Assembly (NCBI GenBank): GCA_022340775.1
Contig: JAJDNH010000029.1
Location: forward strand, 1,653-65,652
Direction: 5' to 3'
Length of the DNA: 64,000 nucleotides
Source: Acidobacteriota bacterium
GTDB taxonomy: Bacteria > Acidobacteriota > Thermoanaerobaculia > Thermoanaerobaculales > Sulfomarinibacteraceae
How positions within the stretch are numbered: position 1 is the stretch's first letter; every line of letters starts with the position of its first letter. The translations under genes were made by a program, and so were the position numbers. Shown in pieces: positions 575 through 55,843 of this stretch. The notes under the pieces are model-generated. The model was not told where the DNA came from. It ran no database searches and was given only the letters and a program-made list of their open reading frames with translations.

Positions 575-1630
575 GTGAACAAGACCATGACCACTGCGAG
601 CCTCGTTCTTGCTATGCTCGTCGCCACACTTGGCACCGCCGACGGAGGCACTCCTGCGGAAAAGGGGAAGGCCGTACCGAGCCCGGAGCGCTCGGTCATC
701 GAGCTTCCCGGCGGCGGCGGCAGGATCGGCTTCGACGACGTGGGCTACTCGAAGACGCTGAAGCGAATACTGCTGCCCGGCGGGCGAACCGGCAAGCTCG
801 ACCTCATCGATCCCGCCTCTGGCGCAGTGACTGCCATCACGGGCTTCAGCACCGCTCCGGCCTCCAGCCGCCACGGCGGCGGCATCACGTCGGTGGACCA
901 GGGTGGCGGCTTCCTGTTCGTATCCGACCGCACCGCCCGCACCGTGGACGTCGTCGACGCCGCCACACGGAAGATCGTGACCCACGCCTCCCTGGCCGGC
1001 GGCCCGGACTACGTGCGCTTCGTGGGCCCGACTCGCGAGCTGTGGGTGACCGAGCCGCACGAAGCACGGATCGAGGTCCTCGGCCTGCCGCCCGGAAAGG
1101 CGCCGGTGCCGTTCCACCAGACGTTCATCACGGTCCCCGGAGGACCCGAGTCGCTGGTCGTCGACGCCTCCCGTGGCCTGGCCTACACCAACCTGTGGCG
1201 GAACCAGACGCTGGCCATCGACCTGAAAAAGCAGTCCATCGTTTCTCGCTGGATCAACGGCTGCGCCGCGTCTCGCGGCCTGGCGCTCGATCGCGGCTCC
1301 AACCTGTTGTTCGTGGGTTGTGCCGAGGGCGGCGCTACCGTCCTCGACCTCGCTCACGGCGGCAAGGTCGTCGACACCGCGAAAGCCGGTGAGGGGGTCG
1401 ACATCATCGACTTCTCGCCGGTTCTCCGCCACCTCTACGTTCCCGGCGGACGCAGCGGAACCCTCTCCATCCTCGGGGTTTCCCCCGCCGGCAAGCTGAC
1501 GCTGCTCGGCGAGGTGGCCGCGGCAAAGGGGGTCCACGGCGTTGCCGCCGCCGATGGCAAGGCCTTCGTCCCCGACCCGGAGAACGGCCGCCTCCTGGTC
1601 TTCACCGACCCCTATCCCCGGACACGCTAA
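575..1630 (+). CDS. secreted beta-propeller repeat protein (YncE/YVTN-like)
   Basis: GTG start follows GGAGGA at 565-570. The N-terminal signal peptide is TASLVLAMLVATLGTADG. Repeated strand-rich segments are present (GGPDYVRF, GGPESLVVD, SRGLALD, LYVPGG). Confidence 0.6.
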   Translation: MNKTMTTASLVLAMLVATLGTADGGTPAEKGKAVPSPERSVIELPGGGGRIGFDDVGYSKTLKRILLPGGRTGKLDLIDPASGAVTAITGFSTAPASSRHGGGITSVDQGGGFLFVSDRTARTVDVVDAATRKIVTHASLAGGPDYVRFVGPTRELWVTEPHEARIEVLGLPPGKAPVPFHQTFITVPGGPESLVVDASRGLAYTNLWRNQTLAIDLKKQSIVSRWINGCAASRGLALDRGSNLLFVGCAEGGATVLDLAHGGKVVDTAKAGEGVDIIDFSPVLRHLYVPGGRSGTLSILGVSPAGKLTLLGEVAAAKGVHGVAAADGKAFVPDPENGRLLVFTDPYPRTR

Positions 1631-2988
1631 CTGATCTGGTGGCGCTTCATCTTGCGCCACAGGGTGTTGCGGGAGATCCCGAGGTCCTGTGCCGCACGTG
1701 TGCGGTTGCCGGCGTGACGGTCGAGCGCCTCGCGGATAGCCGCCGCCTCCGCCGCCTCCAGCGGGTTCGCCGTGGCGCCCGGGGGAGGTGGTGAGGCCAG
1801 CGAGCCACCCTGGATGTGGGGGGGCAGGTCGTCGCGGCCGATGATGCTGCCGCCGCACACCACGAAGGCGTGCTCGATGGCGTTCTCGAGCTCGCGCACG
1901 TTGCCCGGAAAGTGGTAGCGCATCAGCACGCCCATGGCTCGCTCCGAGATGCCGCCGATCCGTCTCCCCTGGAGGGCGTTGAAGCGCGAGATGAAGTGCT
2001 CGACGAGGAGTGGGATGTCCTCGGTACGAGAGCGCAGCGGCGGCACCGACAGCCTGACCACGTTGAGCCTGAAGTACAGATCCTGGCGGAAGCGGCCTGC
2101 CATGACCTCCAGTGACAGGTCGCGGTTGGTCGCCGCAACGACCCGGACATCGGCCTTGACCGGGTGCGTGGCGCCGAGAGGGGTGAACTCGCGCTCCTGA
2201 AGCACCCGCAGCAGCTTGACCTGAGCCGCGGGCGAGAGCTCACCGACCTCGTCCAGCAGGAGCGTTCCGCCCGCCGCCACAGCGAACCGCCCCGCCCGGT
2301 CCTGGTACGCGTCGGTGAACGCCCCCCGAACGTGGCCGAACAGCTCCGACTCGACCAGCGTCTCCGGAATCGCCCCGCAGTTGACGGCCACGAACGGCCC
2401 GGCCCGACGCGGCCCGAGGTTGTGGATGGCGCGGGCAATCAGCTCCTTGCCGGTGCCGGGCTCGCCCTCGATCAGGACCGTGCTAACGCTGTTGGCCACC
2501 AACGGTAGCAGCTCGCGCAGGTTCCGCATCCCGGGGCTCTTGGTGATAATGTCCTCGAGCGTGTAAGAGGCCTCCAGGGTGCGCCTGAGCATGGCCAGGT
2601 CGGACAGGTCGCGGAACATCTCCACGCCGCCGACCACCCGCCCCCCCTCGTCACGGAGCGCGGCCGTGCTCACCGCCACCGGCAGCTCCCGCCCGTCGCG
2701 GCGCACGATCCGCACCTCACGGTCGCGGTAGGCGGTGCCGCCTTCGATGCTGTTGAACAGGAAGCACGAGCCCTGGCAGTGGTTGCTGCGCAGGACCTTG
2801 CTGCACAGAAGACCCACCACCTGGTCGCGGCGCCAGCCGGTAATCTCCTCGGCAGCGTGATTGAACGAGGTAATCCGGCCATCCGCGTCGACAGTGAAGA
2901 TGCCGTGCGGCACGTGCTCGAAGATGAGAGCGTTGTAGCGGGGATCGAGGGGCATGTTCATGATATCAATGTGAGGCTTCTGCTCCAA
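1627..2988 (-). CDS. sigma54-dependent transcriptional activator with N-terminal PAS domain
   Basis: PAS segment FTVDADGRITSFNHAAEEITGW. AAA+ Walker A GEPGTGKELIARAIH. The sigma54-contact loop reads GAFTDA. C-terminal Fis-type HTH AAQDLGISRNTLWRKMKRH. Confidence 0.9.
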   Translation of the reverse strand: MEQKPHIDIMNMPLDPRYNALIFEHVPHGIFTVDADGRITSFNHAAEEITGWRRDQVVGLLCSKVLRSNHCQGSCFLFNSIEGGTAYRDREVRIVRRDGRELPVAVSTAALRDEGGRVVGGVEMFRDLSDLAMLRRTLEASYTLEDIITKSPGMRNLRELLPLVANSVSTVLIEGEPGTGKELIARAIHNLGPRRAGPFVAVNCGAIPETLVESELFGHVRGAFTDAYQDRAGRFAVAAGGTLLLDEVGELSPAAQVKLLRVLQEREFTPLGATHPVKADVRVVAATNRDLSLEVMAGRFRQDLYFRLNVVRLSVPPLRSRTEDIPLLVEHFISRFNALQGRRIGGISERAMGVLMRYHFPGNVRELENAIEHAFVVCGGSIIGRDDLPPHIQGGSLASPPPPGATANPLEAAEAAAIREALDRHAGNRTRAAQDLGISRNTLWRKMKRHQIS

Positions 2989-3105: not shown

Positions 3106-3120
3106 TGGCACACGGTTTGC
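3106..3120 (+). promoter_or_regulatory. sigma54 -24/-12 promoter (TGGCAC-N5-TTGC)
   Basis: TGGCACacggtTTGC has exact GG-N10-GC spacing. A sigma54 activator gene lies immediately divergent. The first operon gene follows, with GGAGG at 3156-3160 and ATG at 3171. Confidence 0.6.
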
Positions 3121-3170: not shown

Positions 3171-4565
3171 ATGGCGATTGAATGCTCGTACTACCTCGAA
3201 CCGGTCGACACTACCGACCTGCCGCGCCGCTTCCTGGAGGCGTTCGCTGCCATTCTCACTCATTCGAACTACGCGATGGCCCTCGACGCCGCGTCTCGCG
3301 TCAGCGCTCGCTGCGGTCGCTGCGCCTCGACCTGCCCCGTGTATCAGGCCAGCAACGACCCGCGCGACATCCCGTGCCTGCGCTCCGAGCTGGTGCTCAA
3401 CGTGTACCGTCGCTACTTCACGCCCGGTGGCGCCCTTTCCACGCGCCTCGGTTCCGGCTTCGAGATCGACGAGGCCTACATCAACACCATGGCCGAGGAG
3501 CTGTACCGCTGCACCGCGTGCCGCCGCTGCAAGCTCGAGTGCCCGATGGGCATCGACCACGGCCTCATCACTCACCTCGGCCGCTGGCTGCTGGCCGAGG
3601 TCGGGATCGTTCCCAAGGCGCTGCGGGTGGCGACCCGTGAGCAGCTGGAGGGCAAGACCAACAACACGTCGGCCATTCCGGCCGCCGCACTCATCGACAC
3701 CTGCGAGTTCCTGGAGGAGGACTGCGTCGACCTCCACGGCTTCAAGATCCACTTCCCCATCGACCAGGAGGACGCCGAGTACATCTTCTTCCCGGCGGTC
3801 AGCGACTACCTGCTCGAGCCCGACACGTTGATGGGCAACGCCGCCGTCATGACCGCCACCAACGCCTCGTGGACGATCGGCACACGCTACTTCGACGGCA
3901 TCAACTACGGTCTCTTCTACTCCGACCGCATGCTCGACCGCATCGTCAACATGGAGGTCGAGGAGCTCAAGCGGCTCAAGGCCCGCACCGTGCTGATCGG
4001 CGAGTGCGGCCACGCGTCGCGCTCCGCCAAGGCGTTCATCCGCACCTTCTGCGGCGGCAACCAGGCGCCCGAGGTGATCAACTGCATGGAGTACGCCCTG
4101 CGCATGGTCAACGAGGGACGGCTGGAGCTGCGCAAGGGCGCCATCGACGCCCGCGTGACCTACCACGACCCCTGCAACATCGCCCGCACGGGGTGGATCA
4201 TCGAGCAGCCGCGCGAGATCCTCCGTCACATTGCGACCGACTTCGTCGACATGACGCCGCACGGCCGCGAGAACTACTGCTGCGGCGGCGGCGGCGGCAC
4301 CGTCTCGATCGACGAGATCCGCTCCTTCCGCACCGGCGTCGGCGGGCGGACCAAGGCCGAGCAGATCCGGAGAACCGGAGCCACGATCCTGGTTTCGCCG
4401 TGCGCGAACTGCAAGAAGCAGCTGCGGGAGGTGTGCGAGGACAACGACCTCGAGCACGTGCAGGTCGTCGGCCTGCACGACCTCATCCTGAAGGCCATCG
4501 TCCCGCCCGCCGAGATGCGGGTCGAGAAGCAACCGGACCCCGAGTCAGAACCGGCCGGCTCATAG
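3171..4565 (+). CDS. HdrD/DsrK/HmcF-like iron-sulfur CCG-domain oxidoreductase subunit (cytoplasmic)
   Basis: Ferredoxin-type motifs CGRCASTCPVY and CTACRRCKLECPMG. Cys-rich CCG-type motifs YHDPCNIAR, NYCCGGGGG and SPCANCKKQ. No signal peptide. I prefer the ATG at 3171 (RBS GGAGG) to the ORF-track ATG at 3105, which overlaps the sigma54 promoter. Confidence 0.8.
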   Translation: MAIECSYYLEPVDTTDLPRRFLEAFAAILTHSNYAMALDAASRVSARCGRCASTCPVYQASNDPRDIPCLRSELVLNVYRRYFTPGGALSTRLGSGFEIDEAYINTMAEELYRCTACRRCKLECPMGIDHGLITHLGRWLLAEVGIVPKALRVATREQLEGKTNNTSAIPAAALIDTCEFLEEDCVDLHGFKIHFPIDQEDAEYIFFPAVSDYLLEPDTLMGNAAVMTATNASWTIGTRYFDGINYGLFYSDRMLDRIVNMEVEELKRLKARTVLIGECGHASRSAKAFIRTFCGGNQAPEVINCMEYALRMVNEGRLELRKGAIDARVTYHDPCNIARTGWIIEQPREILRHIATDFVDMTPHGRENYCCGGGGGTVSIDEIRSFRTGVGGRTKAEQIRRTGATILVSPCANCKKQLREVCEDNDLEHVQVVGLHDLILKAIVPPAEMRVEKQPDPESEPAGS

Positions 4566-4573
4566 GAGGCATC

Positions 4574-5275
4574 GTGGACACCTGGATCGAGCTCGCACGC
4601 GGACCGCTCTTCCGCATCGCCCTGGCCGCCCTGCTCATCGGCCTCGCCTACCGCCTCGGCTCGGCGGCAAGCCAGGTGATCCTGGCCTGGCGCCGTGCAG
4701 GAGACCGCCAGCTCCCCCTGCGCAGCGTGGTGACCGCAACCCTGTCCTGGCTGCTCCCCGTGCGGCTGCTCCGGCAACGGCCGCTGTACGGCATCGCGTC
4801 GCTGCTCTTTCACGTCAGCATCATCGCGTTACCGCTCTTTCTGGCCGGCCACGTGGTCCTGGTTCAGCCGTCGTTGCCGTTTGCATGGCCCCGGCTTCCG
4901 GGCGGCGTCGCCGACACCCTGTCGGTGGTGGCGTTCCTGGCCCTCGGCGCGGTCCTCGTCGGCCGGCTGGCCGTTCGCACCGCGCGCGTCCTGACCCGCT
5001 TTCAGGATGTCGCGGTGCTTGCCCTGCTGCTGTTTCTCGTCGGTTTCGGCTTCCTCGCCGCTCACCCGGCGCTGTCGCCGTTTCCGGCGCGCACCATGCT
5101 CCTGCTCCATATCCTGGCCGGCGATCTGGCCCTGGCCCTCACTCCGGTGACCAAGATCGCCCACTGCATCGTCTACCCGTTCACCCAGCTCATCTTCGAG
5201 CTGGCATGGCACTTCCCCGCCGACAGCGGCCGCCACGTGGTGACCGCCCTGGGTAAGGAGGGTGAGCCCGTATGA
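4574..5275 (+). CDS. NarI/DsrM/HmcE-like integral membrane cytochrome b subunit
   Basis: GTG at 4574 follows AGGAGG at 4564-4569. About five hydrophobic helices carry conserved-looking His residues (FHVSIIALPLFLAGH, LLLHILAGD, KIAHC). It lies in the frame of ORF 3869..5275. Confidence 0.65.
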   Translation: MDTWIELARGPLFRIALAALLIGLAYRLGSAASQVILAWRRAGDRQLPLRSVVTATLSWLLPVRLLRQRPLYGIASLLFHVSIIALPLFLAGHVVLVQPSLPFAWPRLPGGVADTLSVVAFLALGAVLVGRLAVRTARVLTRFQDVAVLALLLFLVGFGFLAAHPALSPFPARTMLLLHILAGDLALALTPVTKIAHCIVYPFTQLIFELAWHFPADSGRHVVTALGKEGEPV

Positions 5276-6060
5276 AGCACTTTGCGATCCTCACCGACGT
5301 CACGCGCTGCATCGGCTGCGAGGCGTGCGTCGAAGCTTGCCAGAAGACCAACGGCACCGGCGACGATGCACCGCATCGATGGCAGCCCGATCCCAACGCC
5401 CTGTCATCGAGCCGCTGGACCACCCTCGCCCACACCCGGGAGGGGCGGTTCGTCCGCGTCCACTGCCGGCACTGCCTCGACCCGTCCTGCGTTGCGGCGT
5501 GTCCGGTCGGCGCCATGCGCCGAACGCCGCAGGGGGCAGTGGTCTACGACCCGGAAATCTGTATGGGGTGCCGCTACTGCATGATCGCCTGCCCGTTCCG
5601 GATGACGCGGTACGAGTGGAGCTCCGCAGTGCCGAAGGTCCGCAAGTGCATCCTCTGCTACCAGAAGGTCATGTCCGGCGAGCTCGAGCAGCCGGCGTGC
5701 ACCGCGGCGTGTCCGACGAAGGCAACCGTGTTCGGCGAGCGCGAGGCGCTGCTGGCCGAGGCACGACGGCGCCTGGCTGCCGAGCCCGAACGCTACATCC
5801 AGCACATTTGGGGTGAGCACGAGGTGGGCGGCACGTCGGTTCTCTACCTGTCCGACGTTCCGCTGGACGAGGCTGGCTGGCCGCGCACCCTCGGCGACCA
5901 CCCTCGCCCCAAGCTGGCCCGCGAGGTGCTCGGCACGGTGCCGTGGACCTTCGCCGGCGTCGCCGTCGCCTGCTATGGCGTCCACTGGACCCTGGACCGC
6001 CGCCGCAAGGTTGCAGCGGCCGAGCACTCCCACGAGGACGAGGATGGAGGCGAACAGTGA
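5272..6060 (+). CDS. 4x[4Fe-4S] ferredoxin-type subunit (HybA/DsrO/HmcB/NrfC-like) with C-terminal TM helix
   Basis: Four Cys clusters: CIGCEACVEAC, CRHCLDPSCVAAC, CMGCRYCMIAC and CILC...CTAAC. C-terminal hydrophobic helix VPWTFAGVAVACYGVHW. ATGA overlap with the upstream gene. No twin-arginine signal is possible because an in-frame TGA sits at 5263. Confidence 0.85.
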   Translation: MKHFAILTDVTRCIGCEACVEACQKTNGTGDDAPHRWQPDPNALSSSRWTTLAHTREGRFVRVHCRHCLDPSCVAACPVGAMRRTPQGAVVYDPEICMGCRYCMIACPFRMTRYEWSSAVPKVRKCILCYQKVMSGELEQPACTAACPTKATVFGEREALLAEARRRLAAEPERYIQHIWGEHEVGGTSVLYLSDVPLDEAGWPRTLGDHPRPKLAREVLGTVPWTFAGVAVACYGVHWTLDRRRKVAAAEHSHEDEDGGEQ

Positions 6061-7997
6061 GCGGCGCGAACAACTCCCGTCTGGTGCTGACCCGCGCCGT
6101 CCTCTGGCTGGTGGTGGGCATCGCCGCCGTGGTGGCCGTGAACCGCTTCGCGCGCGGCCTGGGCGCCACCACCGCCCTCACCGACGCGACGCCGTGGGGC
6201 CTGTGGATCGGCTTTGACGTCCTTGCCGGCGTCGCGCTCGCAGCTGGCGGCTTCGTGATCGCGGCAACCGTCTACATCTTCCACCTCGACCGCTATCACG
6301 CGATCGTACGCCCGGCGGTGCTGACGGCGTTCCTGGGCTACGTCGCGGTCGTGCTCGGGCTGCTGATGGACCTCGGCCGACCGTGGAACATCTGGCGACC
6401 CATGCTCTTCTGGCAGCCTCACTCGCCGCTATTCGAAGTTGCCTGGTGCGTGATGCTCTACCTGACCGTGCTGGCCCTGGAGTTCGCGCCGGTGGTGTTC
6501 GAGGGGCTACGGCTCGAGCGCCCTCTTCGCATCATGCGGCGGCTCACGCTGCTCCTGGTGATCGCCGGCATCGGCCTCTCCACCCTCCATCAGTCCTCCC
6601 TCGGCACCCTGTTCCTGCTCGCCCGCGACCGGCTCCACCCGCTCTGGTATTCGCCGATCCTGCCGCTTCTCTTTCTGGTCTCGGCAGTGGCCCTCGGTCT
6701 GATGATGGTGACCTGTGAGAGCCTGGCCAGCTCCTGGCTGTTCCGGCACCGGCCCGAGTGGCCACTGCTTGGCGGCCTCACGCGGGCAGCGGCCGTCGTC
6801 TCCCTGCTCTACCTCGCCCTCCGCCTCGGCGATCTCGCTTGGCGCCACCAGCTCGTCTACCTGCTCGAGGGCTCGTGGGCGTCGGTGCTGTTCGTCTTCG
6901 AGATCGGCATCAGCGCGGTCGTTCCCGCCCTTCTCTTCCTGCTTCCGTCGACCCGCACGAGCCACGCCGGCGTCGCGACCGGCGCCGTGCTCGGGGTCGG
7001 CGGCTTCGTCCTCTACCGGGCCGACGTCGGCGGAATCGCCCACCTCGCGGTCGGCGGCCACCACTACGTCCCCGCCCTCACCGAGATCGTGGTCAGCGCC
7101 GGCGTGGTGTCGGCGATGGCGTTGGTGTTCCTCTTCCTGGTCGAGCGGTTTCCGGTGTGGGAGGAGCGCCCGCAGGTCCCGGGCCACTTTACGGCGCCGA
7201 TGCGGGATCGCGTGACCGGCACCTTCTTCGGCGGGCCGTGGTTCTCGCGCGCTCACCTGGGGGCGGCCGGGCTCGCGCTGGGCATGGTGCTCGGCGTGGC
7301 GCTGGTTGAGGCCGACGCCCCAACGTCGGCGGCTGCCCGGTTGCGGCCGGTGCCCGCCGCCCGTACGGCGCTGATCCGTGAGGTCAAGCGCAACCCCAGT
7401 CCCGGTCATCGCTTGGAAGTCCTATCACCCGAGCAGGTCACCCAGGACCCGGACGGCATCGAGGCCGCGCTCCTGGTCGGCGGCGGGAGGAACGGGCGCG
7501 TCGTCCTCTTCCCGCACCAGGCCCACCAGCAGCGGCTGGGCGGCCCGGCCTCGTGCGGGAAATGCCACCACCGCAACCTCCGTCACGACCGCGGGACGCC
7601 GTGTACCGCCTGCCATCGCGACATGTATGCCGCCACCGACACCTTCGCCCACCAGCCGCACGTCGAGGGGCTCGGTGGCAACGCTTCCTGCACGAAATGC
7701 CACCAGGCCGGGACAGCACCGGCTCGGGCCTCCGCCCGCGCCTGCGACGCTCCGGCCTGCCACGGTGGTGACGTCAGCACGGCCGCCGTGGCCATCAACC
7801 GCTCCAAGCTGCCGGCGGGGTACGCCCCCGGATACCGCCGCGCCATGCACACGTTGTGCATCGGCTGCCACACCCGTCACGAACAGAAGACCAAGGTCAC
7901 CACGCCCTACCTCAGCCGCTGCACCACCTGCCACCGCGATCGAGCGGTCGAACCCGAGCCGGCCACCGTTGTTGTGGCCCGGCTGGAGGCACCATGA
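6057..7997 (+). CDS. NrfD/HybB/DsrP-like polytopic quinone-interacting membrane subunit fused to a C-terminal hexahaem cytochrome c domain
   Basis: GTGA overlap with the upstream stop. About 10 NrfD-type helices plus an 11th helix (GAAGLALGMVLGVALV). Haem-binding motifs follow: CGKCH, CTACH, CTKCH, CDAPACH (CX4CH), CIGCH and CTTCH. Confidence 0.8.
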   Translation: MSGANNSRLVLTRAVLWLVVGIAAVVAVNRFARGLGATTALTDATPWGLWIGFDVLAGVALAAGGFVIAATVYIFHLDRYHAIVRPAVLTAFLGYVAVVLGLLMDLGRPWNIWRPMLFWQPHSPLFEVAWCVMLYLTVLALEFAPVVFEGLRLERPLRIMRRLTLLLVIAGIGLSTLHQSSLGTLFLLARDRLHPLWYSPILPLLFLVSAVALGLMMVTCESLASSWLFRHRPEWPLLGGLTRAAAVVSLLYLALRLGDLAWRHQLVYLLEGSWASVLFVFEIGISAVVPALLFLLPSTRTSHAGVATGAVLGVGGFVLYRADVGGIAHLAVGGHHYVPALTEIVVSAGVVSAMALVFLFLVERFPVWEERPQVPGHFTAPMRDRVTGTFFGGPWFSRAHLGAAGLALGMVLGVALVEADAPTSAAARLRPVPAARTALIREVKRNPSPGHRLEVLSPEQVTQDPDGIEAALLVGGGRNGRVVLFPHQAHQQRLGGPASCGKCHHRNLRHDRGTPCTACHRDMYAATDTFAHQPHVEGLGGNASCTKCHQAGTAPARASARACDAPACHGGDVSTAAVAINRSKLPAGYAPGYRRAMHTLCIGCHTRHEQKTKVTTPYLSRCTTCHRDRAVEPEPATVVVARLEAP

Positions 7998-8416
7998 GCG
8001 AGCCACAACCCGCGCGTGCCCCGGTGATCGCCATCATCGACGACGAGCAGGACATCATCACCTACCTGCGCGTCGCGCTCGAGGATCACGGCTTCCGTGT
8101 CGTGGCCACGACCGACCCCGCGAGCGCCCCGGCTCTGCTCGAGCAGGCCTGCCCCGATTTGATCTGCCTTGACATCCTGATGCCCGAGCACACCGGCCTC
8201 GCCCTCTACGCCGAGATCATGGGAAGCCCGCGTCTGGCGTCGGTGCCGGTCGTGATCCTGAGCGGCCTCAACGCCAACGACGAGCTCCTCAACCAGGTTT
8301 GGAACACCAACAACCTGCCGGCGCCGGCGAGCTTCATCGAGAAGCCCGTGGACATCGAGCACCTGCTTCGAACCCTCCGCGCCGTGCTGGGTCAGCAGGT
8401 GGGGGTGGCGCCATGA
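7994..8416 (+). CDS. single-domain response regulator (receiver only)
   Basis: Receiver residues IIDDE, LICLDILMP, VVILSG and FIEKP. ATGA overlaps on both sides. Confidence 0.85.
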   Translation: MSEPQPARAPVIAIIDDEQDIITYLRVALEDHGFRVVATTDPASAPALLEQACPDLICLDILMPEHTGLALYAEIMGSPRLASVPVVILSGLNANDELLNQVWNTNNLPAPASFIEKPVDIEHLLRTLRAVLGQQVGVAP

Positions 8417-10218
8417 CCGCCGTCGCGTGGCATCCCGAGTGGCGGGCCGAGCTGGTCGACCAGTTCCTCGCCGGCGTCATGGTCCTCGACCGCAGCCTGG
8501 CCATCGCCGACCATAACCGCGCCTTCACCGAGATGTTCGGTGAGGCGCGCGGGAACAAGTGCTACAAGGTGCTCAAGGGCCGGTCAGAGCCGTGCGGCAT
8601 CTGCGCCGCAATGAGCACCTTCAACGATGGCCGCCGCAGGGTGTTGGAGCAGGTGGGGCAGGACAGGGAGGGGCGCCCCGTCAACTACCTGGTGCAGGTC
8701 GGGCCGCTGCGCGACCCCGCCGGGGACATCGCCTTCACCGCTGTCATCACCACCGACCTCACCGCCACCAAGCGGCTGCAGCGCGAGTACCAGGCTCTGT
8801 TCGAGAAGGTCCCCTGCTACGTCGCGGTGCTCAACCGGGACTTCCGAGTGGTCAAGGCCAACGAGCAGTTTCGGCGCACGTTCGGGGAGCCGACCGGCGA
8901 GCACTGCCACGAGATGTTCAAGAAAAGCCCCGAACGGTGCGCGGGGTGTCTGGTCGAGCAGACGTTCCGCGACGGCGAACCCCATACGGCCCCTCACACG
9001 GGCATCGCCTGTGACGGCGAAACCACCCACTACCTCGCTTTCACCACACCTCTGCTCAACGAGAGCGGCGAGGTGAGGCACGTCATCCACATGTCGCTCG
9101 ACGTCACCGAAGTCAGGGCCCTGGCCGACGAGTTGGGACGCGCCAACGAGATCCGCCGGGCGCTTGTCGAGAGCTCGCTGGACGCCATCGCCGTCACCGA
9201 CGAGCACCGTCGCGTGGTGATGCTCAACCGGGCGGCCGAGCAGCTGTGGGGAGTCTCCCGCGACGATCTCGTGGGCCGGACGGTACCCCGCTGGATGCTG
9301 CCGGCCGAGTTGGCCCCGGTGCTGAAGAACGAGGCCGAGCAGGAGCTGGTCCACGACGCTCGAGTCTCGACCGCCTCCGGCGTCCAGGTCCCGGCGCGGA
9401 TCGGCGCCGTCTCGCTCTCGGTCGAGAACCGCTTCTCGGGCGCCGCGGTGTTCGCGCAGGACCTTCGCGAGCTGAAGAAGCTCGAGCGGGAGAAGCTGGA
9501 GGCGGAGAGGTTGGCTGCGGTGGGTCAGACCGTGGCCGGCCTTGCCCACGGCATCAAGAACATCCTCACCGGGCTCGAGGGCGGCATGTACGTGACCTCG
9601 TCCGGGCTCAAGCGCGGTGACCAGGGACGCATCCGCCAGGGCTGGGAGATGCTCGAACGCAACATGTCACGGGTCTCCGACCTGGCGAAGAACCTGCTCG
9701 CATTCTCGCGTGGGGATCACCCGGAACCCGAGCTGGTGCGGCCGGCCGACATCGTCCACGACGTGGTGACGCTCTTTCGTGACGGCGCAGCCCAGCACGG
9801 GATTGAGCTGGAGGGAGTCGTCGACGACTCCGTCGAGCCGGCCTGGATGGATCCAGAGGCCATCCACAGCTGTCTCGCCAACCTGGTCTCCAACGCCATC
9901 GACGCCTGCCTGGTGAGCCAGGACCCTGGATGCCGGGTCGAGCTCCACCTCCGCGAGGCCGACGCCGCCATCATCTTCGAGGTGGTGGACAGCGGCTGCG
10001 GCATGGACTACGAGGTCAAGCAAAAAGCGTTTACCAGCTTCTTCACCACCAAGGGCAAGGGCGGAACGGGCCTCGGCCTGCTCCTCACCCGTAAGATAGT
10101 CCAGGAGCACGGCGGTTCGATCACCCTGGAAAGCACACCGGGCCAGGGCAGCACCTTCCGCCTGCGCTTCCCGCGGGCGCGGCTGCCGGAGCCACAGGGC
10201 AAGGAGTCGACTTCATGA
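8413..10218 (+). CDS. soluble multi-PAS sensor histidine kinase
   Basis: No TM segment. PAS-like repeats are present and the first two carry C-X10-C-X2-C motifs. H-box LAHGIKN. ATPase boxes NLVSNAIDA, DSGCGM and GGTGLGL. Confidence 0.9.
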   Translation: MTAVAWHPEWRAELVDQFLAGVMVLDRSLAIADHNRAFTEMFGEARGNKCYKVLKGRSEPCGICAAMSTFNDGRRRVLEQVGQDREGRPVNYLVQVGPLRDPAGDIAFTAVITTDLTATKRLQREYQALFEKVPCYVAVLNRDFRVVKANEQFRRTFGEPTGEHCHEMFKKSPERCAGCLVEQTFRDGEPHTAPHTGIACDGETTHYLAFTTPLLNESGEVRHVIHMSLDVTEVRALADELGRANEIRRALVESSLDAIAVTDEHRRVVMLNRAAEQLWGVSRDDLVGRTVPRWMLPAELAPVLKNEAEQELVHDARVSTASGVQVPARIGAVSLSVENRFSGAAVFAQDLRELKKLEREKLEAERLAAVGQTVAGLAHGIKNILTGLEGGMYVTSSGLKRGDQGRIRQGWEMLERNMSRVSDLAKNLLAFSRGDHPEPELVRPADIVHDVVTLFRDGAAQHGIELEGVVDDSVEPAWMDPEAIHSCLANLVSNAIDACLVSQDPGCRVELHLREADAAIIFEVVDSGCGMDYEVKQKAFTSFFTTKGKGGTGLGLLLTRKIVQEHGGSITLESTPGQGSTFRLRFPRARLPEPQGKESTS

Positions 10219-10805
10219 GACCAGACACGGACACTCCGCCTCACCAGACCGCAGAGACCGGTACCGGAGGGCAACGATCCTTGAGCGACCTCTCGATCCT
10301 GGTCGTCGACGACGAGCCGGATGTTGCGGTGTACCTCGCATCAGTGCTCGAGGACGCGGGTTTTGCAGTGCTCACGGCAGGCGACGGCGAAGAAGCGATG
10401 CGGCTGATTCGCAGCCGGCGGCCCGCCTTGATCTCGCTCGACCTGGTGATGCCGGGCAAGTCAGGGATCCGCCTCCTCGCCGAGCTGCGTCGCGACCGGG
10501 AGCTCAGGCGCATTCCGGTGGTGATCGTGTCCGGCCACGCCCACGATGCAGGTGTGCGCCGCGACCTCGACGAGGTGCTGGCTGACAGCTCCATGGTCGG
10601 ACCCTCGCTGTGTCTGGACAAGCCGATTACTCCTGAAAAGTACGTGCGCCACGTATGTGAGCTGCTCGGAGTGGAAGCACCCGACGAAGCTGAGCGGACC
10701 GACCCGACCGATGAGCTGCGCCGCGACGCCGTGGACCTTCTGGGCACTGCCGACCAGGACACCCTGGAGGCCGTGCTCGCGGAGCTGCGAAGGAGGAACC
10801 GATGA
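10215..10805 (+). CDS. single-domain response regulator with N-terminal extension
   Basis: Receiver residues VVDDEPD, LISLDLVMPGKSG, VVIVSG and CLDKP. ATGA overlaps with both neighbours. Confidence 0.85.
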   Translation: MRPDTDTPPHQTAETGTGGQRSLSDLSILVVDDEPDVAVYLASVLEDAGFAVLTAGDGEEAMRLIRSRRPALISLDLVMPGKSGIRLLAELRRDRELRRIPVVIVSGHAHDAGVRRDLDEVLADSSMVGPSLCLDKPITPEKYVRHVCELLGVEAPDEAERTDPTDELRRDAVDLLGTADQDTLEAVLAELRRRNR

Positions 10806-11209
10806 CACGCGAGTCCTCACCCCGCCGCATTCTGATCATCGACGACGACCCCGATGTGGTCACGTACCTGGAAACCGTCTTCCGCGACAACGGGTACGAG
10901 CCCTTGTGCGCGACCGACGGCGATGCCGGCCTCGAGCTGGCACGCGCCCAGCTTCCCGACCTCATCTGCCTGGACATCTCGATGCCGGCCCCGAGCGGCG
11001 TCCGGGTCTACCGCGAGCTCCGCGGAGATCCCAAGCTGTCGGGTATCCCGGTCGTGATGGTCACCGGCGTCCTACGGCAGTTCGAGGAGTTCATCGGCAG
11101 GCGCCGTCAGGTCCCACCCCCGGACGGCTACATCGCCAAGCCGTTCCAGGTCGAGGAGCTGCTGAGCGTCGTGCGCCGCCTCCTCCGGACGCCGGCCGCA
11201 ACAAGCTAG
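10802..11209 (+). CDS. single-domain response regulator
   Basis: Receiver residues IIDDDPD, LICLDISMPAPSG, VVMVTG and YIAKP. ATGA overlap with the upstream gene. Confidence 0.85.
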   Translation: MTRESSPRRILIIDDDPDVVTYLETVFRDNGYEPLCATDGDAGLELARAQLPDLICLDISMPAPSGVRVYRELRGDPKLSGIPVVMVTGVLRQFEEFIGRRRQVPPPDGYIAKPFQVEELLSVVRRLLRTPAATS

Positions 11210-11451
11210 TCATTCGCCGGGAAGGACGACTGTCGCGGTTGGGTCGGACGCTCCCGCGCGGTCGTCGTGTGCTTGGTGTGTACCATTCTGATACGTGTGA
11301 CTCCAGTCACCTGCCCTTCACTTGACCGTGACGCCCCACATCAGCTACATTTGAAGTTGAACCGGCAACTTAGGCTCAACGCTCCGCCTGGACGGCGGGC
11401 ACTGTGTGCGAGGTCGAGAGGTCTCGCAGCCGCACCTTCCTCGGAGGCAGC

Positions 11452-12672
11452 ATGGACGGCCGTGGCCGTGCACCAGAGCGCTTGAACTCGCCGCAACCGC
11501 GGCTGGGCTCGGTCGACGTCATCCCACATCTTTACGACGCCGCAGTCCAGCCGTCCGCCTGGGCCGGGGCGCTCGAGGCTGCTGCCGAGCTCCTTCAGGC
11601 TGCCGCAGTCATCCTCGAGTGCGGCCCACCGTGCGCAGGCCTGATCCACATCATCGCCTCATCGGGGCTCTCTGCAGAGCTCGTCACAGCCTACAACCGG
11701 AACCACATCGGTAATGATGAGCTGCTGCAGGAGGCTCTGGCACGTCCGGCGGGGATGCTGATCTCCAGCCGCCTGGCCCTATCCGATGCGGCCCTCGAAC
11801 GGTCCTCGCTGTTTCGCAACCTGCTGCGGCCGGCTGGTCTTCTGGAGATGGCGGGGACTGCCTTCGTCAAGGAGGCAGACCTGTTTGCGGGCGTGTGGAT
11901 CGCCCGCGGCGCCGGATCCCCGACCTTCTCCGAAACCGAGTATCAGCTCCTGCGCGAGCTCCTCCCGCACATGGAACGCGTCGTCACGGTCCGAAACCGG
12001 GTCGCTCAGGCGGAGCAGATGGCAGAGCTCACGGCCGGCGCCTTCGACCGCGTCGCCATGGGCGTCGTGCTGATGGATGGGCTCGGCCGGCCGCTGCTGA
12101 CCAACCGCGAGGCTCGCAACATCGGCAACGAGGGCGACGGATTCACCATCCTGCCGGATGGGCCGGCCGCCGCCAGGCACGACGACACCAGAATGCTCCG
12201 CGCCGCCATTCGGAAGGCCGGAGGCGCAGACCGCTCGACCTCCGGCCCGGCCGGGAAGGCCCTGCGGCTCGCCAGACCCTCTGGCCGCTCCGAGTACCAG
12301 GTCGTGGTGCTGCCTCTGCCCCAACGATGCCAGCCGGCCGACGCCAGCGGCGTGGTCGCGGTGCTGTTCGTCACCGACCCCGAGAGATCCCACAGCCCGA
12401 TCGACCATCTGGTAGCTGACCTGTTCGGGCTCACCGAGGCCGAGGTTCGCCTCGTCATGCAGCTGCTGGGGGGCAGCACTCTCACCGACGCAGCAGAGAC
12501 CCTCGGGTTGTCACGGAACACGGTTCACTCGCAGCTCGCCAGCGTCTTCCGCAAGACCGGCACCAGCAGGCAGAGCGACCTCGTGAGGGTGGTGCTGCGG
12601 GCACTGGCGCCGGTTCGGGGCCCCGACGACTCCTCGGGGTTCTACATCGTTCCAGACGACGGACGTTGGTGA
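11452..12672 (+). CDS. LuxR-family transcriptional regulator (C-terminal HTH)
   Basis: C-terminal segment LTEAEVRLVMQLLGGSTLTDAAETLGLSRNTVHSQLASVFRKTG. The N-terminal region IPHLYDAAVQPSAWAGAL is typical of orphan LuxR-type regulators. The start is uncertain: ATG at 11452 after GGAGG, or GTG at 11404. Confidence 0.75.
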   Translation: MDGRGRAPERLNSPQPRLGSVDVIPHLYDAAVQPSAWAGALEAAAELLQAAAVILECGPPCAGLIHIIASSGLSAELVTAYNRNHIGNDELLQEALARPAGMLISSRLALSDAALERSSLFRNLLRPAGLLEMAGTAFVKEADLFAGVWIARGAGSPTFSETEYQLLRELLPHMERVVTVRNRVAQAEQMAELTAGAFDRVAMGVVLMDGLGRPLLTNREARNIGNEGDGFTILPDGPAAARHDDTRMLRAAIRKAGGADRSTSGPAGKALRLARPSGRSEYQVVVLPLPQRCQPADASGVVAVLFVTDPERSHSPIDHLVADLFGLTEAEVRLVMQLLGGSTLTDAAETLGLSRNTVHSQLASVFRKTGTSRQSDLVRVVLRALAPVRGPDDSSGFYIVPDDGRW

Positions 12673-52343: not shown

Positions 52344-53159
52344 TCACACGTTTTTTGGTCTGTTCCGCTTCCTTGCAGAATGGATCGCGCCCAGATTCCC
52401 CAGGAAATCGAATACCAGGCACATGAGCAAGCCCACGACAGCCGCCAGCCCAACGGCACCCAGACCGTAGAGAACGCCGTGTGAGCGGGCCAGGTTGCTC
52501 ACGAAAGCCTCGATCCCCACCTCGTGAACCTCGATCGACAGGGATCGGGTGCCGACCACCCGGCGGCCGCGGATCGCGAACGCCTCGATGGTGTAGCGCC
52601 CGGAGGCGACGCGGCACGGCCAGAAGAAGTTGGTGCTGTAACGACCCTCGCGGCAGGTGACGCCGCCCTCACGGAACGAGAACAGGCCACCTGCCTTGCG
52701 GGCTGCGATGAGCTCGTCAAGGTGGAGTTCGGCCTCGGTTCCCCCCTCGGCCGTCAGCGATGCACGCAGGCCCCGCAGCCCGAGCCGGTAGCGCAGCTGC
52801 TCCTGGCTGGAGAGGATCTCGTCGAGCGGGTCACTGGTGCTGATCTTGTACATCCGCGGTACGTTGCCGAAGCGGACCCGACCGACGGACATCCAGAACG
52901 GGCCGACCTTGCCCATTCGAGAGAACGTGACCTCCCTGTCCGGGGAGGTGAGCTTGACCGCCACCGCGCACCCGGGCTCGACCCTGCCCCACACCCCGAC
53001 CCGCTTCCCCGCGTAGCACGACGTCACACGGATGTTGTGGTCGGACACCTCAAGAGATCGCAGCGGGTTCACCTGCTGTGCCGAGGGCTCGGCGCCGGCT
53101 GCGAACACACCGTGGCAGAAGCTGAGCACCAACACGGCCGCCAGCCGCCCGGCCTTCAT
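52344..53159 (-). CDS. TIGR02186-like membrane-anchored protein
   Basis: Signal peptide, then a beta-rich domain, then a C-terminal TM helix (GLGAVGLAAVVGLLMCLVF). 4-nt overlap with the upstream TauE/SafE gene. Only the last 271 codons of the 642-aa ORF are used. Confidence 0.55.
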   Translation of the reverse strand: MKAGRLAAVLVLSFCHGVFAAGAEPSAQQVNPLRSLEVSDHNIRVTSCYAGKRVGVWGRVEPGCAVAVKLTSPDREVTFSRMGKVGPFWMSVGRVRFGNVPRMYKISTSDPLDEILSSQEQLRYRLGLRGLRASLTAEGGTEAELHLDELIAARKAGGLFSFREGGVTCREGRYSTNFFWPCRVASGRYTIEAFAIRGRRVVGTRSLSIEVHEVGIEAFVSNLARSHGVLYGLGAVGLAAVVGLLMCLVFDFLGNLGAIHSARKRNRPKNV

Positions 53160-54064
53160 CTCCTGCCTACCAACTCCTGGAGAAGGAACGCAGGCGCTGC
53201 CAGCAGGCCGTTCAGCATCTTGACCGACATCGCGAGGACCAACAGCGAGAAGACCACCTTGAGCTGGTCGGCCCTGAGCTTCTGTGCGGCGCGGGCTCCC
53301 AGCTGTGCGCCGAGCGTCGACCCGATAAGCAGGATCGCCGCCAGCACGACGTCCACCGTGTGGTTCATGGCCGCCTGCATGAGCGTCACCGAGCTCGAGG
53401 TGAACAGCATTTGGAACAAGCTGGTCCCGACTACCACTTGCATCGGCATGTCCAGCAGGTAGGTCATGGCCGGGATCAGGACGAAACCTCCTCCGACCCC
53501 CATGATGGCCGCCAGCACGCCCACGAAAGCCCCGAGTAGGAACGGCGCCAGGGCCGAGGTCTGGACGCCCGCGGCCTTGAACCGCATCTGCAGCGGCAGC
53601 CTCTGCAGCAGCCGCACCACGCGCGATGGCTCGCCGCTCGCCGGCTCGCCCCGTACCTGACTGGTGATTCCCTCGATGAACACCATCACGCCAATCACTG
53701 CCATCAGGACCACGTAGCAGGACACGATTACGAGATCGAGGTTGCCGACCGCCCGCAGGAGCTTGACGATCCAGGTTCCCAGCGCGCCTCCGGAGACGCC
53801 ACCGACGAGCATCAGCAGGCCGATGCCGATGTCGACGTTGCCCACCCTGAGGTGGGCGATCGCGCCCGATACGCTGGCTCCGGCGATGGCGTTGATCCCG
53901 GAGGCCGTGGCAACCGCCGGGTTGACGCCCATCATGATGAGGATTGGGGTCAACAGGAAGCCGCCGGATCCGAGCAGACCCTGAACGAAGCCGACACCGA
54001 TCCCGGCACAGGCCACCCACAGGATGTTGATGTCCATCGCAGCGACTGGGAGGTAGATGTTCAT
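53156..54064 (-). CDS. TauE/SafE (TSUP) family anion exporter/permease
   Basis: About eight TM helices with an internally duplicated GxGGG pattern (LLGSGGFLLTPIL and IMGVGGGFVLIPAM). The start is chosen at MNIYLPVAAM. Confidence 0.8.
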   Translation of the reverse strand: MNIYLPVAAMDINILWVACAGIGVGFVQGLLGSGGFLLTPILIMMGVNPAVATASGINAIAGASVSGAIAHLRVGNVDIGIGLLMLVGGVSGGALGTWIVKLLRAVGNLDLVIVSCYVVLMAVIGVMVFIEGITSQVRGEPASGEPSRVVRLLQRLPLQMRFKAAGVQTSALAPFLLGAFVGVLAAIMGVGGGFVLIPAMTYLLDMPMQVVVGTSLFQMLFTSSSVTLMQAAMNHTVDVVLAAILLIGSTLGAQLGARAAQKLRADQLKVVFSLLVLAMSVKMLNGLLAAPAFLLQELVGRR

Positions 54065-54391
54065 CAGCTCCAGGTTCCTCGTCGTGTCGCCGCGCGGCTG
54101 CGGTGCCGCTCGGAACCGACGTTCGAGACCGGCGCCAGCCCCCCCAGCCTGGCTCAACCGGGCTCCCGGCACGGGCCGGGTATTGCCGGATCCAGTGTCC
54201 CTCCGCGCCATGTGCTCGGTCAAGGGCAGCGAGCCCCAGTAACCCGGGCTTGAAGATATTTCTTCTCCTCACTTCCCTGTGTCCGTGCTCCTTCGTGTTC
54301 TTGGTGTCGTGATCGTCTCCTCTCCGTCGGCCTCGCTACCGGCGCTCATGAAGAACCCGGGCTACACTGCGCGGGTGCACGGGAGGGAGCA

Positions 54392-55843
54392 ATGGCGAAA
54401 ACGTACGACCTCGTCATCCTGGGCTGCGGGCCGGCCGGCGAGCGGGCGGCGATCCTCGCCGCCAAAGCCGGCCGCCGGGTGGCGGTGGTGGAGCGCGCCA
54501 ACGTGGTCGGCGGCACGCGGATCAACTGGGGGACGATCCCCAGCAAGACGCTGCGCGAGAGCGCCCTCTTCGTGTGGGCCCATACCCACCACCAGCTGGA
54601 GGGAATCCGTACCGAGATTGCCGAAGAGATCACGGTCTCGGGCTTCATGTACCGCGAGCACATGGTGGTCCAACGCGAGCTCGAGCTCATCAACCGGACG
54701 CTCGGGCGCTACAGCGTCGAGGTCTTCCGCGGCCACGGCCGCTTCCTCGACCCGCACCAGGTGGCGGTGGTGGACGAGGACGGTGTCAAGTTGCACGAGC
54801 TCGCGGGGGACGTCTTCGTCATCGCGACCGGCACCTCGCCCAACCACCCCGACGACGTCACCTTTGAGGGTACGGTCGTGTTCGACAGCGATACGATCCT
54901 CAAGCTGCCGCGTATTCCCCGCACCATGATCGTCCTCGGCGCCGGTGTGATCGGGGTGGAGTACGCCTCGATCTTCGCCGCCCTCGGCGTTGACGTGACC
55001 CTTGTCGACACCCGTGACGAGCTGCTGCCGTACCTCGACCGCGAGATCGCCCGGCGACTGGAGCAGGAGCTCGGCCGCCTCGGCATCACCATTCGCCACG
55101 GCGAGCGCTACCAGCGGATTGCAAGGGTGGAGGGGGGGCCGCCTCGCGTTCGCTGCGAGACCACCGGGGGCGACGTGCTGGAGGCGGACGTCCTGCTGTA
55201 CTCGGTCGGCCGCGACGGCAACACCGCCGGCATCGGCCTCGAAGCGGTCGGGATCGAACCGACGGCGCGCGGCCTGATCGAGGTTAACGAGGCCTACCAG
55301 ACCGTGCAGCCGCACATCTACGCCGCCGGCGATGTGATCGGCTACCCGGCCCTGGCCAGCACCTCGATGGAGCAGGGGCGGCAGGTCGTGCGCCACGCGT
55401 TCGGCATCCCCGGCCCGCTCGGCCGTGAGGGAACGCTTCCGTTCGCCATCTACGCCATCCCCGAGGTCGGCACCATCGGTGCCACCGAGGAGGACCTGAG
55501 GCGGACGGACAGCGAGTACGTGGTCGGCCGCGGCCTTTACCGGCTCAACCCACGCGGCCAGATCATGGGCGACACCGGCGGTATGCTGAAGCTGCTGTTC
55601 GACCTGGACGGCCTGCGCCTGCTCGGCGCCCACATCATCGGCTCCCAGGCCAGCGAGCTGGTACACATCGGCCAGGCCTTCCTGCGCGCCGACGCCACCG
55701 CCTTCGACATCGCCGAGGCGCTCTACAACTACCCGACCCTGGCCGACCTCTACCGGCACGCGGCGCTCGAGGCCCTGCGCGAGAAGATGCAACGCCGCCC
55801 CGGGTGGCAGCCGTGGACGACGCCCCGTTCCGGGCAGGCGTGA
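54392..55843 (+). CDS. sthA: soluble pyridine nucleotide transhydrogenase-like flavoprotein (SthA-type)
   Basis: FAD motif DLVILGCGPAGERAA. GGTRINWGTIPSKTL lacks the CxxxxC redox disulfide of lipoamide dehydrogenases, as in SthA. NAD motif IVLGAGVIGVEYA. Confidence 0.75.
   Translation: MAKTYDLVILGCGPAGERAAILAAKAGRRVAVVERANVVGGTRINWGTIPSKTLRESALFVWAHTHHQLEGIRTEIAEEITVSGFMYREHMVVQRELELINRTLGRYSVEVFRGHGRFLDPHQVAVVDEDGVKLHELAGDVFVIATGTSPNHPDDVTFEGTVVFDSDTILKLPRIPRTMIVLGAGVIGVEYASIFAALGVDVTLVDTRDELLPYLDREIARRLEQELGRLGITIRHGERYQRIARVEGGPPRVRCETTGGDVLEADVLLYSVGRDGNTAGIGLEAVGIEPTARGLIEVNEAYQTVQPHIYAAGDVIGYPALASTSMEQGRQVVRHAFGIPGPLGREGTLPFAIYAIPEVGTIGATEEDLRRTDSEYVVGRGLYRLNPRGQIMGDTGGMLKLLFDLDGLRLLGAHIIGSQASELVHIGQAFLRADATAFDIAEALYNYPTLADLYRHAALEALREKMQRRPGWQPWTTPRSGQA

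Follow-up and report, generated by a model that had tools for sequence, protein, structure and literature searches.

NrfD-type membrane subunits anchor many anaerobic respiratory enzymes; in the cases described so far they hold no cofactor, and the cytochrome is a separate protein. Here we analyze a gene from Acidobacteriota bacterium (family Sulfomarinibacteraceae; GenBank assembly GCA_022340775.1, contig JAJDNH010000029.1, positions 1,653 to 65,652) in which an NrfD-type subunit and a hexahaem cytochrome c are encoded as one polypeptide. The gene lies at positions 6057–7997 of this 64,000-nucleotide stretch, which we call the window; coordinates without a locus label are those of the window. 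In Geobacter, CbcL likewise unites a quinone-interacting membrane domain with a periplasmic multihaem cytochrome c domain on a single chain; unlike the fusion, it has a dihaem b-type cytochrome (HydC/FdnI type) as its membrane part, nine haems, and another operon context. The initial annotation of the window stated that the cytochromes of the relatives (HmcA, DsrJ, QrcA, and ActA) are separate proteins, which agrees with published descriptions (PMC8076601, PMC6303296, PMC10861901).

A review of the NrfD family places the C-terminus of its members on the membrane's N-side and assigns ten helices to HybB, DsrP, QrcD, and NhcC (PMC8076601). QrcD draws protons from the cytoplasm while it reduces menaquinone at the periplasmic side, and the HybB and HmcC clades have been argued to act alike (PMC6303296). 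HmcABCDEF of Desulfovibrio vulgaris resembles the fusion locus in combining an NrfD-type ten-helix subunit with a tail-anchored protein carrying four [4Fe-4S] clusters, a NarI-type cytochrome b, a GECGH protein with one CCG motif, and a c3-family cytochrome; in both systems regulator genes are attached to the operon. DsrMKJOP is similar in having a cytochrome b and CCG module together with a module of periplasmic cytochrome c, iron-sulfur (Fe-S) protein, and ten-helix NrfD protein. DsrJ is itself membrane-anchored (PMC10861901). In ActC/ActA and QrcD/QrcA, too, a cytochrome with five or six haems works next to an Fe-S subunit on a ten-helix NrfD protein (PMC6303296, PMC8076601), but ActA and QrcA are separate polypeptides with anchors of their own. 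Alternative complex III and QrcABCD differ further in that a molybdopterin-like subunit is present and a cytochrome b or CCG module is absent.

The analysis below leads us to a probability of about 75% that positions 6057–7997 are a genuine, selected gene fusion encoding the membrane and cytochrome subunit of a four-subunit transmembrane redox complex that resembles Hmc and DsrMKJOP.

Architecture of the fusion protein

The fusion gene starts with a GTG at 6057 that overlaps the stop codon of the preceding gene as GTGA, and GGAGG lies 8 nucleotides 5′ of it. Helices were located by a Kyte-Doolittle scan and in an AlphaFold2 model built on 59 homologues, which had a mean predicted local distance difference test score (pLDDT) of 75.9 and a predicted template modelling score of 0.71. 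The gene and the predicted regions of its product are as follows.

6057–7997, forward strand: fusion gene, one open reading frame (ORF) of 646 codons plus the stop codon (7995–7997)
6057–7148, forward strand: ten-helix NrfD/HybB/HmcC-type quinone-interacting module, residues 1–364 (NCBIfam, Pfam, HybB alignment, Foldseek)
7149–7247, forward strand: predicted cytoplasmic loop after helix 10, residues 365–397, with conserved FPVWEE...PWF (lysine plus arginine counts, alignment)
7248–7331, forward strand: eleventh transmembrane helix, putative topology adaptor, residues 398–425 (AlphaFold2, hydropathy)
7332–7514, forward strand: predicted periplasmic linker with a small beta-rich segment, residues 426–486, ending in VVLFPHQAH, a c7/c3-type start (AlphaFold2)
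7515–7934, forward strand: hexahaem class III (c3/c7-like) cytochrome c domain, residues 487–626 (motifs, Pfam)

The initial annotation had described about ten helices of the NrfD/HybB type followed by an eleventh hydrophobic one. Both methods indeed place ten helices before residue 365 (7–33, 49–74, 78–105, 124–150, 154–188, 202–228, 235–262, 274–295, 303–325, and 341–364) and an eleventh at residues 398–425, which contains GAAGLALGMVLGVALVEA and was modelled with a pLDDT above 90 (91–93). Pfam recognizes NrfD at residues 43–320 and Cytochrom_CIII/C7 at 482–569. The NrfD score (PF03916) is 67.9 bits against a gathering cut-off of 25.8, which places the protein in that family, and the Cytochrom_CIII score (PF02085, residues 482–563) is 41 bits against 22.9 (E value 2.5e-10), which places its C-terminal part in class III. 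The best NCBIfam matches for residues 16–373 are HmcC (2e-90) and HybB (1e-85), and HmcA matches residues 528–630 weakly. The equivalog cut-offs are missed for both HmcC (NF045714; 303.8 versus 550) and HybB (NF008133; 288.5 versus 450). Judged by these scores, the NrfD part is a relative of HmcC and HybB and not an equivalog of either.

Conservation of the fusion

The exact protein is present in NCBI, where it derives from an Acidobacteria metagenome-assembled genome. At least 120 protein clusters with 53–86% identity to the fusion cover 96–100% of its length and hold both Pfam domains. With one genome taken per species, about 60 loci have NrfD and cytochrome in one uninterrupted ORF with six haem motifs (seven in one locus). 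Hosts include Thermoanaerobaculia, Terriglobia, and Vicinamibacterales, as well as Gemmatimonadota, Planctomycetota, Ignavibacteria/Kapabacteria/Melioribacteraceae, Zixibacteria, Kryptonia, Hyphomicrobiales, Myxococcales, Thermodesulfobacteriota, and Fibrobacteria, so that the fusion spans more than 8 phyla. The few relatives that look split (L059, L063) lie at contig ends or come from assemblies with frameshifts in several operon genes.

The G+C content of third codon positions (GC3) stays at 0.85–0.91 in one frame through all four segments (NrfD part, helix 11, linker, and cytochrome), and every other frame contains stops across 7150–7500. The reading frame is therefore continuous through the area around 7250–7420, where a frameshift at the junction would have made the fusion doubtful. 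The view of the initial annotation that the fusion looks functional rather than like a sequencing artefact is supported by this uniform GC3 and by the recurrence of the single ORF among orthologues.

The NrfD module

Conservation was assessed in an alignment of 59 homologues with 52–86% identity. The NrfD part of the fusion is 33% identical to Escherichia coli HybB over residues 19–367. HybB, the membrane subunit of hydrogenase 2, shares with it the ten helices as well as residues R89, Y99, E148, and H184, which correspond to R85, Y95, E142, and H178 of the fusion and are invariant in all 59 sequences. Replacement of these HybB residues is reported to have lowered H2 oxidation (Lubek 2019), and they have been assigned to a proton path (PMC8076601). 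Among the HybB quinone-site and proton-path positions given in that review, those with invariant counterparts in the fusion include D54, D105, and E127 in addition to the four just named. HybB differs in that it stops about 17 residues past helix 10 and has no haem domain.

A Foldseek search with the AlphaFold2 model returned ActC or ActF chains as its top six matches, each with a probability of 1.0, and the model has the fold of two four-helix bundles. The nearest solved structures are the ActC chains 6btm_C, 6f0k_C, and 8k9e_C, with template modelling scores of about 0.6–0.67 normalised to the target. These comparisons show residues 1–364 to be a ten-helix quinone module of the HybB/HmcC type, predicted to hold no cofactor.

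Helix 11 and the position of the cytochrome domain

Loops on the side of the N-terminus carry a mean of 12.8 lysine and arginine residues, compared with 6.4 on the opposite side, and 58 of the 59 homologues agree in this bias. The loop formed by residues 365–397 has the most of all loops (mean 3.85). Because of this bias and the placement of the NrfD-family C-terminus (PMC8076601), helix 10 is predicted to end in the cytoplasm. The ten helices thereby show the pattern of the HybB/HmcC/QrcD clade, with both ends on the N-side, to which helix 11 is an addition. With helix 10 ending in the cytoplasm, an odd eleventh helix would be required to put the cytochrome where haem is attached. Helix 11 is hydrophobic in every homologue, with best 19-residue hydropathy values of 1.34–2.39 (median 2.06). 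Between helix 10 and the cytochrome, W368, W395, and G409 are invariant, and P431, R436, L473, and G480 are nearly so. The linker was modelled with strands at residues 436–444, 451–455, 468–475, and 482–485 (pLDDT about 70–83).

Helix parity, the charge bias, and the way in which c-type cytochromes mature lead us to infer that the cytochrome domain would be periplasmic. The initial annotation had argued that helix 11 shifts the C-terminus to the periplasm; parity, the bias in 58 of 59 homologues, and the family topology (PMC8076601) support that argument. The idea that helix 11 represents a fused HmcD is unsupported, as NCBIfam gives no HmcD match.

The hexahaem cytochrome domain

The C-terminal part of the fusion contains CGKCH at residue 500, CTACH at 516, CTKCH at 545, CDAPACH (CX4CH) at 563, CIGCH at 601, and CTTCH at 622. 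Translation thus recovers the same five CXXCH motifs and one CX4CH motif that the initial annotation had listed. Six haem motifs are far beyond what chance would produce, and all 18 of their cysteine and histidine residues are invariant in the alignment. Exactly six further histidines are invariant (H487, H490, H505, H532, H535, and H598), which would be enough for six bis-histidine haems; this ligation is a prediction. The domain opens in a c7/c3-like manner (VVLFPHQAH...CGKCHH) and has weak matches to the HmcA structures 1h29, 1gws, and 2e84.

The C-terminal 251 residues of the fusion, used as the query of an exhaustive phmmer search, yielded 310 cluster representatives, 224 of them at E values of 1e-10 or lower, and nearly all carry six motifs. 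NrfD sequence lies upstream in 62 of the 148 representatives examined, and some others have a different five-helix N-terminus. The remaining ones are too fragmentary to classify; the protein set is rich in fragments and comes without genomic context.

Partner subunits

The fusion is the last of four translationally coupled genes, in the order DsrK/HmcF-like, HmcE/TmcC-like, HmcB/HybA-like, and fusion. This order is kept in essentially every fusion locus long enough to show it (about 50 loci).

3171–4565, forward strand: DsrK/HmcF/TmcB-like cytoplasmic Fe-S protein, 464 amino acids from ATG 3171 (NCBIfam; Pfam CCG and Fer4_8)
4574–5275, forward strand: HmcE/TmcC-like membrane cytochrome b of the NarI type (NCBIfam TmcC 4.4e-31, HmcE 1.4e-28)
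5272–6060, forward strand: HmcB/HybA-like protein with four [4Fe-4S] clusters and a C-terminal membrane helix, without an N-terminal signal peptide (NCBIfam HmcB 3e-67, HybA 3e-60)

The first product matches DsrK (7e-83), HmcF (7e-58), and TmcB (5e-54) in NCBIfam. The motifs CXnCCGXnCX2C and T/GECGH define the DsrK/HmcF/TmcB group (PMC10861901), and the protein has one CCG motif at residue 370 (Pfam CCG, 52.9 bits) and GECGH at 277. Its start is most likely ATG 3171, because the ATG of the longest ORF (3105) falls in the promoter described below; GGAGGA lies 8 nucleotides 5′ of ATG 3171, and homologue alignments begin at residues 15–29 of the long ORF. The HmcE-like product is hydrophobic and has histidines at 81, 94, 165, 180, and 198 of the translated stretch. 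The stop of its gene overlaps the HmcB-like start (ATGA). The HmcB-like product has 16 cluster cysteines and is 33% identical to E. coli HybA, with which it aligns from HybA residue 38. As in the Hmc complex, HmcB-, HmcE-, and HmcF-like partners are encoded together, but each of them and the fusion, and thus all four subunits of the module, score below the NCBIfam equivalog cut-offs.

Fe-S subunit without export signal

Throughout the family the Fe-S subunit begins with MxxAILTDxTKCIGC, and the HmcB, HybA, DsrO, NrfC, and TtrB profiles all align to it from position 37–42, those of HmcB and HybA from 37–39. A C-terminal helix followed by RRxK, as in HybA (RR..K), is conserved. HybA differs in having a signal for twin-arginine translocation (Tat). 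Thus, the subunit has the C-terminal helix of the Tat-dependent, tail-anchored HybA/HmcB type and lacks the signal peptide. An N-terminal extension of the HmcB-like gene is ruled out in the window, since no earlier start codon lies between the preceding stop and the beginning of its ORF; in most loci the gene also adjoins the HmcE-like gene. For another tail-anchored ferredoxin without a signal, hitchhiking on an adjacent [FeFe] hydrogenase with a Tat signal has been given as the explanation (PMC10924467).

Had the HmcF-like protein contained a hidden Tat signal, the Fe-S subunit might have been exported together with it. The candidate motif, RPRRFLEAFAAILKHSNY, was rejected because its RR is replaced by QK, RK, DR, SR, SK, GR, or GQ in homologues and because the helix that follows is too conserved and too polar for the h-region of a signal. 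The HmcF-like N-terminus (3171–3300) carries '[DN]RP[RQK][RK]FLEAFAAILKHSNY' before the first Fe-S cluster motif, highly conserved in all homologues. This motif mimics a twin arginine and is probably part of a structural, possibly membrane-associating, helix.

Related loci

A neighbour-joining tree of the NrfD parts was rooted on E. coli HybB; it has no support values and is indicative only. In it, all hexahaem fusions form one clade, whose extent matches the occurrence of HmcF and HmcE. Its sister clade contains unfused 390-amino acid proteins along with shorter fusions whose cytochrome c7 has three haems; HmcF and HmcE are absent there, and GcvH-like and regulator genes are found instead.

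The three-haem fusions of the sister clade (L067, L068:8004-9578, L073, and L079) are 523–547 amino acids long and carry a cytochrome c7 domain. They follow a signal-less HmcB-like gene, and no HmcE or HmcF genes are present. Proteins with a glycine-cleavage H-protein (lipoyl carrier-like) domain are encoded upstream of signal-less Fe-S and NrfD pairs of this clade (L068:6029-7222; L069:5426-6097 and 6161-6868). One such GcvH-like protein is fused to a response-regulator receiver, and hybrid/HAMP histidine kinases and sigma-54 activators adjoin. These neighbours suggest a link to redox or thiol signalling.

A different arrangement occurs at L082:2845-8055, where HmcF-like and HmcE-like genes are followed by one that joins another kind of multi-helix membrane segment to the same hexahaem domain (P0122 type, with a frameshift in this contig). 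Genes for the small and large subunits of a [NiFe] hydrogenase stand directly after this hexahaem gene, and NrfD and HmcB are absent. This neighbour hints at an electron donor and fits a c3-like role of the domain as hydrogenase acceptor.

Promoter, regulators, and other genes of the window

The operon is flanked by regulatory elements on both sides.

1627–2988, reverse strand: divergent PAS-domain sigma-54-dependent activator (Pfam PAS, Sigma54_activat 2.3e-66, AAA_lid_14, HTH_8)
3106–3120, forward strand: sigma-54 promoter-like site TGGCACACGGTTTGC, −24/−12 consensus (TGGCAC-N5-TTGC match)
7994–8416, forward strand: single-domain response regulator whose start overlaps the fusion stop (Pfam Response_reg 5.6e-17)

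The site at 3106–3120 is the only perfect TGGCAC-N5-TTGC in the 64-kb window, and it sits in the gap that separates the activator gene from the operon's first gene. Of 49 related loci, 3 (L001, L015, and L028) have the same strict pattern upstream of their HmcF-like gene; the promoter call is therefore solid for the window and its closest relative and not for the whole family. Activator homologues lie near the operon in many related loci, and a response-regulator homologue is found within about 100 nucleotides 3′ of the fusion in many (e.g., L001, L004, L007, L008, L020, L022, L025, and L027). Expression of the operon is probably sigma-54 dependent and under the predicted control of the adjacent PAS activator and two-component genes.

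The regulatory block that follows the operon (7994–12672) includes a multi-PAS histidine kinase (ORF 8299–10218), receivers at 10215–10805 and 10802–11209, and a 422-amino acid ORF (11404–12672) whose C-terminus looks LuxR-like by eye. Elsewhere in the window, a gene of the TauE/SafE-type sulfite exporter family (53156–54223, reverse strand) adjoins a gene for a pyridine nucleotide-disulfide oxidoreductase (54392–55843). This pair (53156–55843) contains the only other sulfur- or thiol-related genes seen in the window.

Discussion

Our findings suggest a model in which helix 11 would serve as an internal signal anchor and bring the apocytochrome into the periplasm, where haem would be attached to it. 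The hexahaem domain, tethered in this way, would replace a separate HmcA or DsrJ and exchange electrons with periplasmic carriers. Electrons may then travel by way of the Fe-S subunit, with its four clusters, to the NrfD module and its menaquinone site, while protons would be taken up from the cytoplasm or released into it, a behaviour demonstrated for QrcD and suggested for HybB and HmcC. The cytochrome b and CCG pair may connect the quinone pool with a substrate in the cytoplasm, either a thiol/disulfide or a trisulfide. What the sequences show are the domain identities and the conservation of cofactor ligands, proton-path residues, and operon; the way in which electrons flow and the nature of the cytoplasmic substrate are, like the rest of the model, inferred.

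In comparing the fusion operon with HmcABCDEF, we noticed several differences. The cytochrome of the fusion has six haems rather than the 16 of HmcA, and it is fused to the NrfD C-terminus through an extra helix. A separate 16-haem HmcA was not recognized (32.6 bits for HmcA versus 400). HmcD is absent, as shown by the missing profile match and the lack of a small ORF between the genes, and the gene order is F-E-B-C::cytochrome instead of A-B-C-D-E-F. The Fe-S subunit is without the N-terminal extension of about 36 residues, and the hosts are Acidobacteriota and other non-Desulfovibrio phyla. The differences from DsrMKJOP are of a similar kind: DsrJ is a separate trihaem protein, no dsr genes lie near the fusion, and scores for DsrP (40.3 versus 350) and DsrO (102.8 versus 200) fall below the equivalog cut-offs. 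The predicted complex would work in the manner of the Hmc type, yet it is neither Hmc nor Dsr.

Several points weigh against this model. The most serious concerns the Fe-S subunit. No Tat or Sec signal is found on it across the family, in fused and unfused members alike (including L001–L080), and the conserved module encodes no partner that carries one. Without an export signal, the periplasmic position that a path from haem through Fe-S to quinone calls for is not explained; this is the main weakness of the proposed electron path. Lysine and arginine residues just after helix 11 exceed those before it (4.1 versus 1.5), which is atypical for a signal anchor with its N-terminus inside. The cytochrome domain was modelled with only moderate confidence (pLDDT about 50–80). 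No dsrAB, dsrC, hydrogenase, or formate dehydrogenase genes were detected among the 30 window proteins scanned. Subunit functions are carried over from distant relatives with scores under the equivalog cut-offs, and expression, haem attachment, and complex formation are predictions from sequence.

What other explanations could account for the locus? There is a vanishingly small probability that two separate genes, one for NrfD and one for the cytochrome, were artificially joined through a frameshift, a missing stop, or a chimeric assembly. The source DNA is a metagenome-assembled genome and L059 and L063 look split, but the same single ORF recurs in about 60 assemblies that are independent of one another and in at least 120 clusters from different projects, its linker keeps W368, W395, and G409, GC3 is uniform in one frame with stops in the others, and the split relatives also have broken HmcF and HmcE genes or sit at contig ends. 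Databases call the fusion "Ni/Fe-hydrogenase cytochrome b subunit" or "HybB-like", and the former name points to the membrane subunit of a periplasmic [NiFe] hydrogenase 2, here with an added cytochrome. Identity to HybB and, for the neighbour, to HybA (33% each), the NCBIfam HybB match (1e-85), and the hydrogenase genes beside the same hexahaem domain in L082 speak for this explanation. However, there is no such hydrogenase in the window or within about 8 kb of a hexahaem fusion in the 60-odd loci (L001–L080); the single match, in L068, lies about 6.6 kb away from a relative with three haems. Instead, HmcF-like and HmcE-like proteins are the conserved partners, and the HybB score (288) stays under its cut-off of 450. 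HybB has no haem, so that "cytochrome b subunit" is a misnomer in any case, and we consider a hydrogenase 2 subunit very improbable. Because no hydrogenase or dsr genes are nearby, the database name is misleading.

A DsrMKJOP variant (K-M-O-P::J) serving dissimilatory sulfite or sulfur metabolism through DsrC would account for the CCG subunit, whose best NCBIfam match is DsrK (7e-83) and which contains GECGH, and for a module composition that parallels M, K, J, O, and P (PMC10861901). Some Acidobacteriota are also reported to carry dsr genes (10.1101/2020.10.01.322446). Nevertheless, the NrfD part scores 304 bits with HmcC and 288 with HybB as opposed to 40 with DsrP, and the Fe-S subunit fits HmcB and HybA far better than DsrO. 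DsrJ is trihaem with His/Met and His/Cys haems (PMC10861901), unlike the six haems and six invariant histidines found here. The window proteins scanned contain no dsrAB or dsrC product. The hosts Gemmatimonadota, Planctomycetota, and Ignavibacteria are not generally known for Dsr metabolism, which also counts against a Dsr variant. We regard it as improbable. Less easily dismissed, though unlikely, is an outward quinol:cytochrome c oxidoreductase that feeds periplasmic or extracellular acceptors, or a redox sensor for the adjacent two-component genes. Geobacter CbcL and ImcH offer parallels for the outward direction. The regulators are tightly linked to the fusion (a response regulator overlapping its stop, the sigma-54 activator, a histidine kinase, and two more response regulators), and the sister clade pairs signal-less Fe-S and NrfD proteins with GcvH-like and receiver-domain proteins. 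NrfCD-plus-multihaem modules have been proposed as quinol:acceptor reductases in metal reducers (PMC3534657, PMC9386147, PMC7327174). On the other hand, the HybB/HmcC/QrcD clade is tied to quinone reduction (PMC6303296), the ever-present HmcE/HmcF pair indicates a cytoplasmic thiol/disulfide end, and the hmc operon of D. vulgaris has the regulators rrf1 and rrf2 without being a sensor (PMC10924467). Since direction cannot be read from sequence, the outward version is a variant of the Hmc/Dsr-like model rather than a true alternative to it.

It is tempting to speculate, at rather long odds, that the fused complex is not just a compact Hmc but an unrecognised, widespread respiratory or redox-signalling machine whose hosts include Acidobacteriota, Gemmatimonadota, Ignavibacteria, and Planctomycetota, with its Fe-S subunit either periplasmic by an undescribed route or by hitchhiking, or cytoplasmic. 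If the Fe-S subunit is periplasmic, there would be an undescribed export route for cofactor-loaded Fe-S proteins, or the subunit would be carried along by an unknown enzyme that is the true catalytic head of the complex. If it is cytoplasmic, the NrfCD module would have a geometry never seen before.

We found no description of an NrfD–cytochrome c fusion in the literature searched, outside which most subscription journals lie, so that this absence is not proof. The fusion is not mentioned in the 2021 review of the NrfD family (PMC8076601) or in the Qrc, Dsr, and Tat papers (PMC6303296, PMC10861901, PMC10924467). The components of the complex and its likely logic are already known; new are the covalent architecture, its broad and unappreciated occurrence, and the lack of an export signal on the Fe-S subunit.

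The covalent link sets a 1:1 stoichiometry of NrfD module and cytochrome and fixes the position of the cytochrome relative to helix 10 and the Fe-S subunit. The fusion complex could also be a simpler, four-subunit system for probing the DsrJOP/HmcABC half of these complexes. Its distribution would mean that abundant phyla of soil and sediment, beyond the classical sulfate reducers, possess a transmembrane conduit like that of Hmc and Dsr, which at present is wrongly labelled a hydrogenase subunit.

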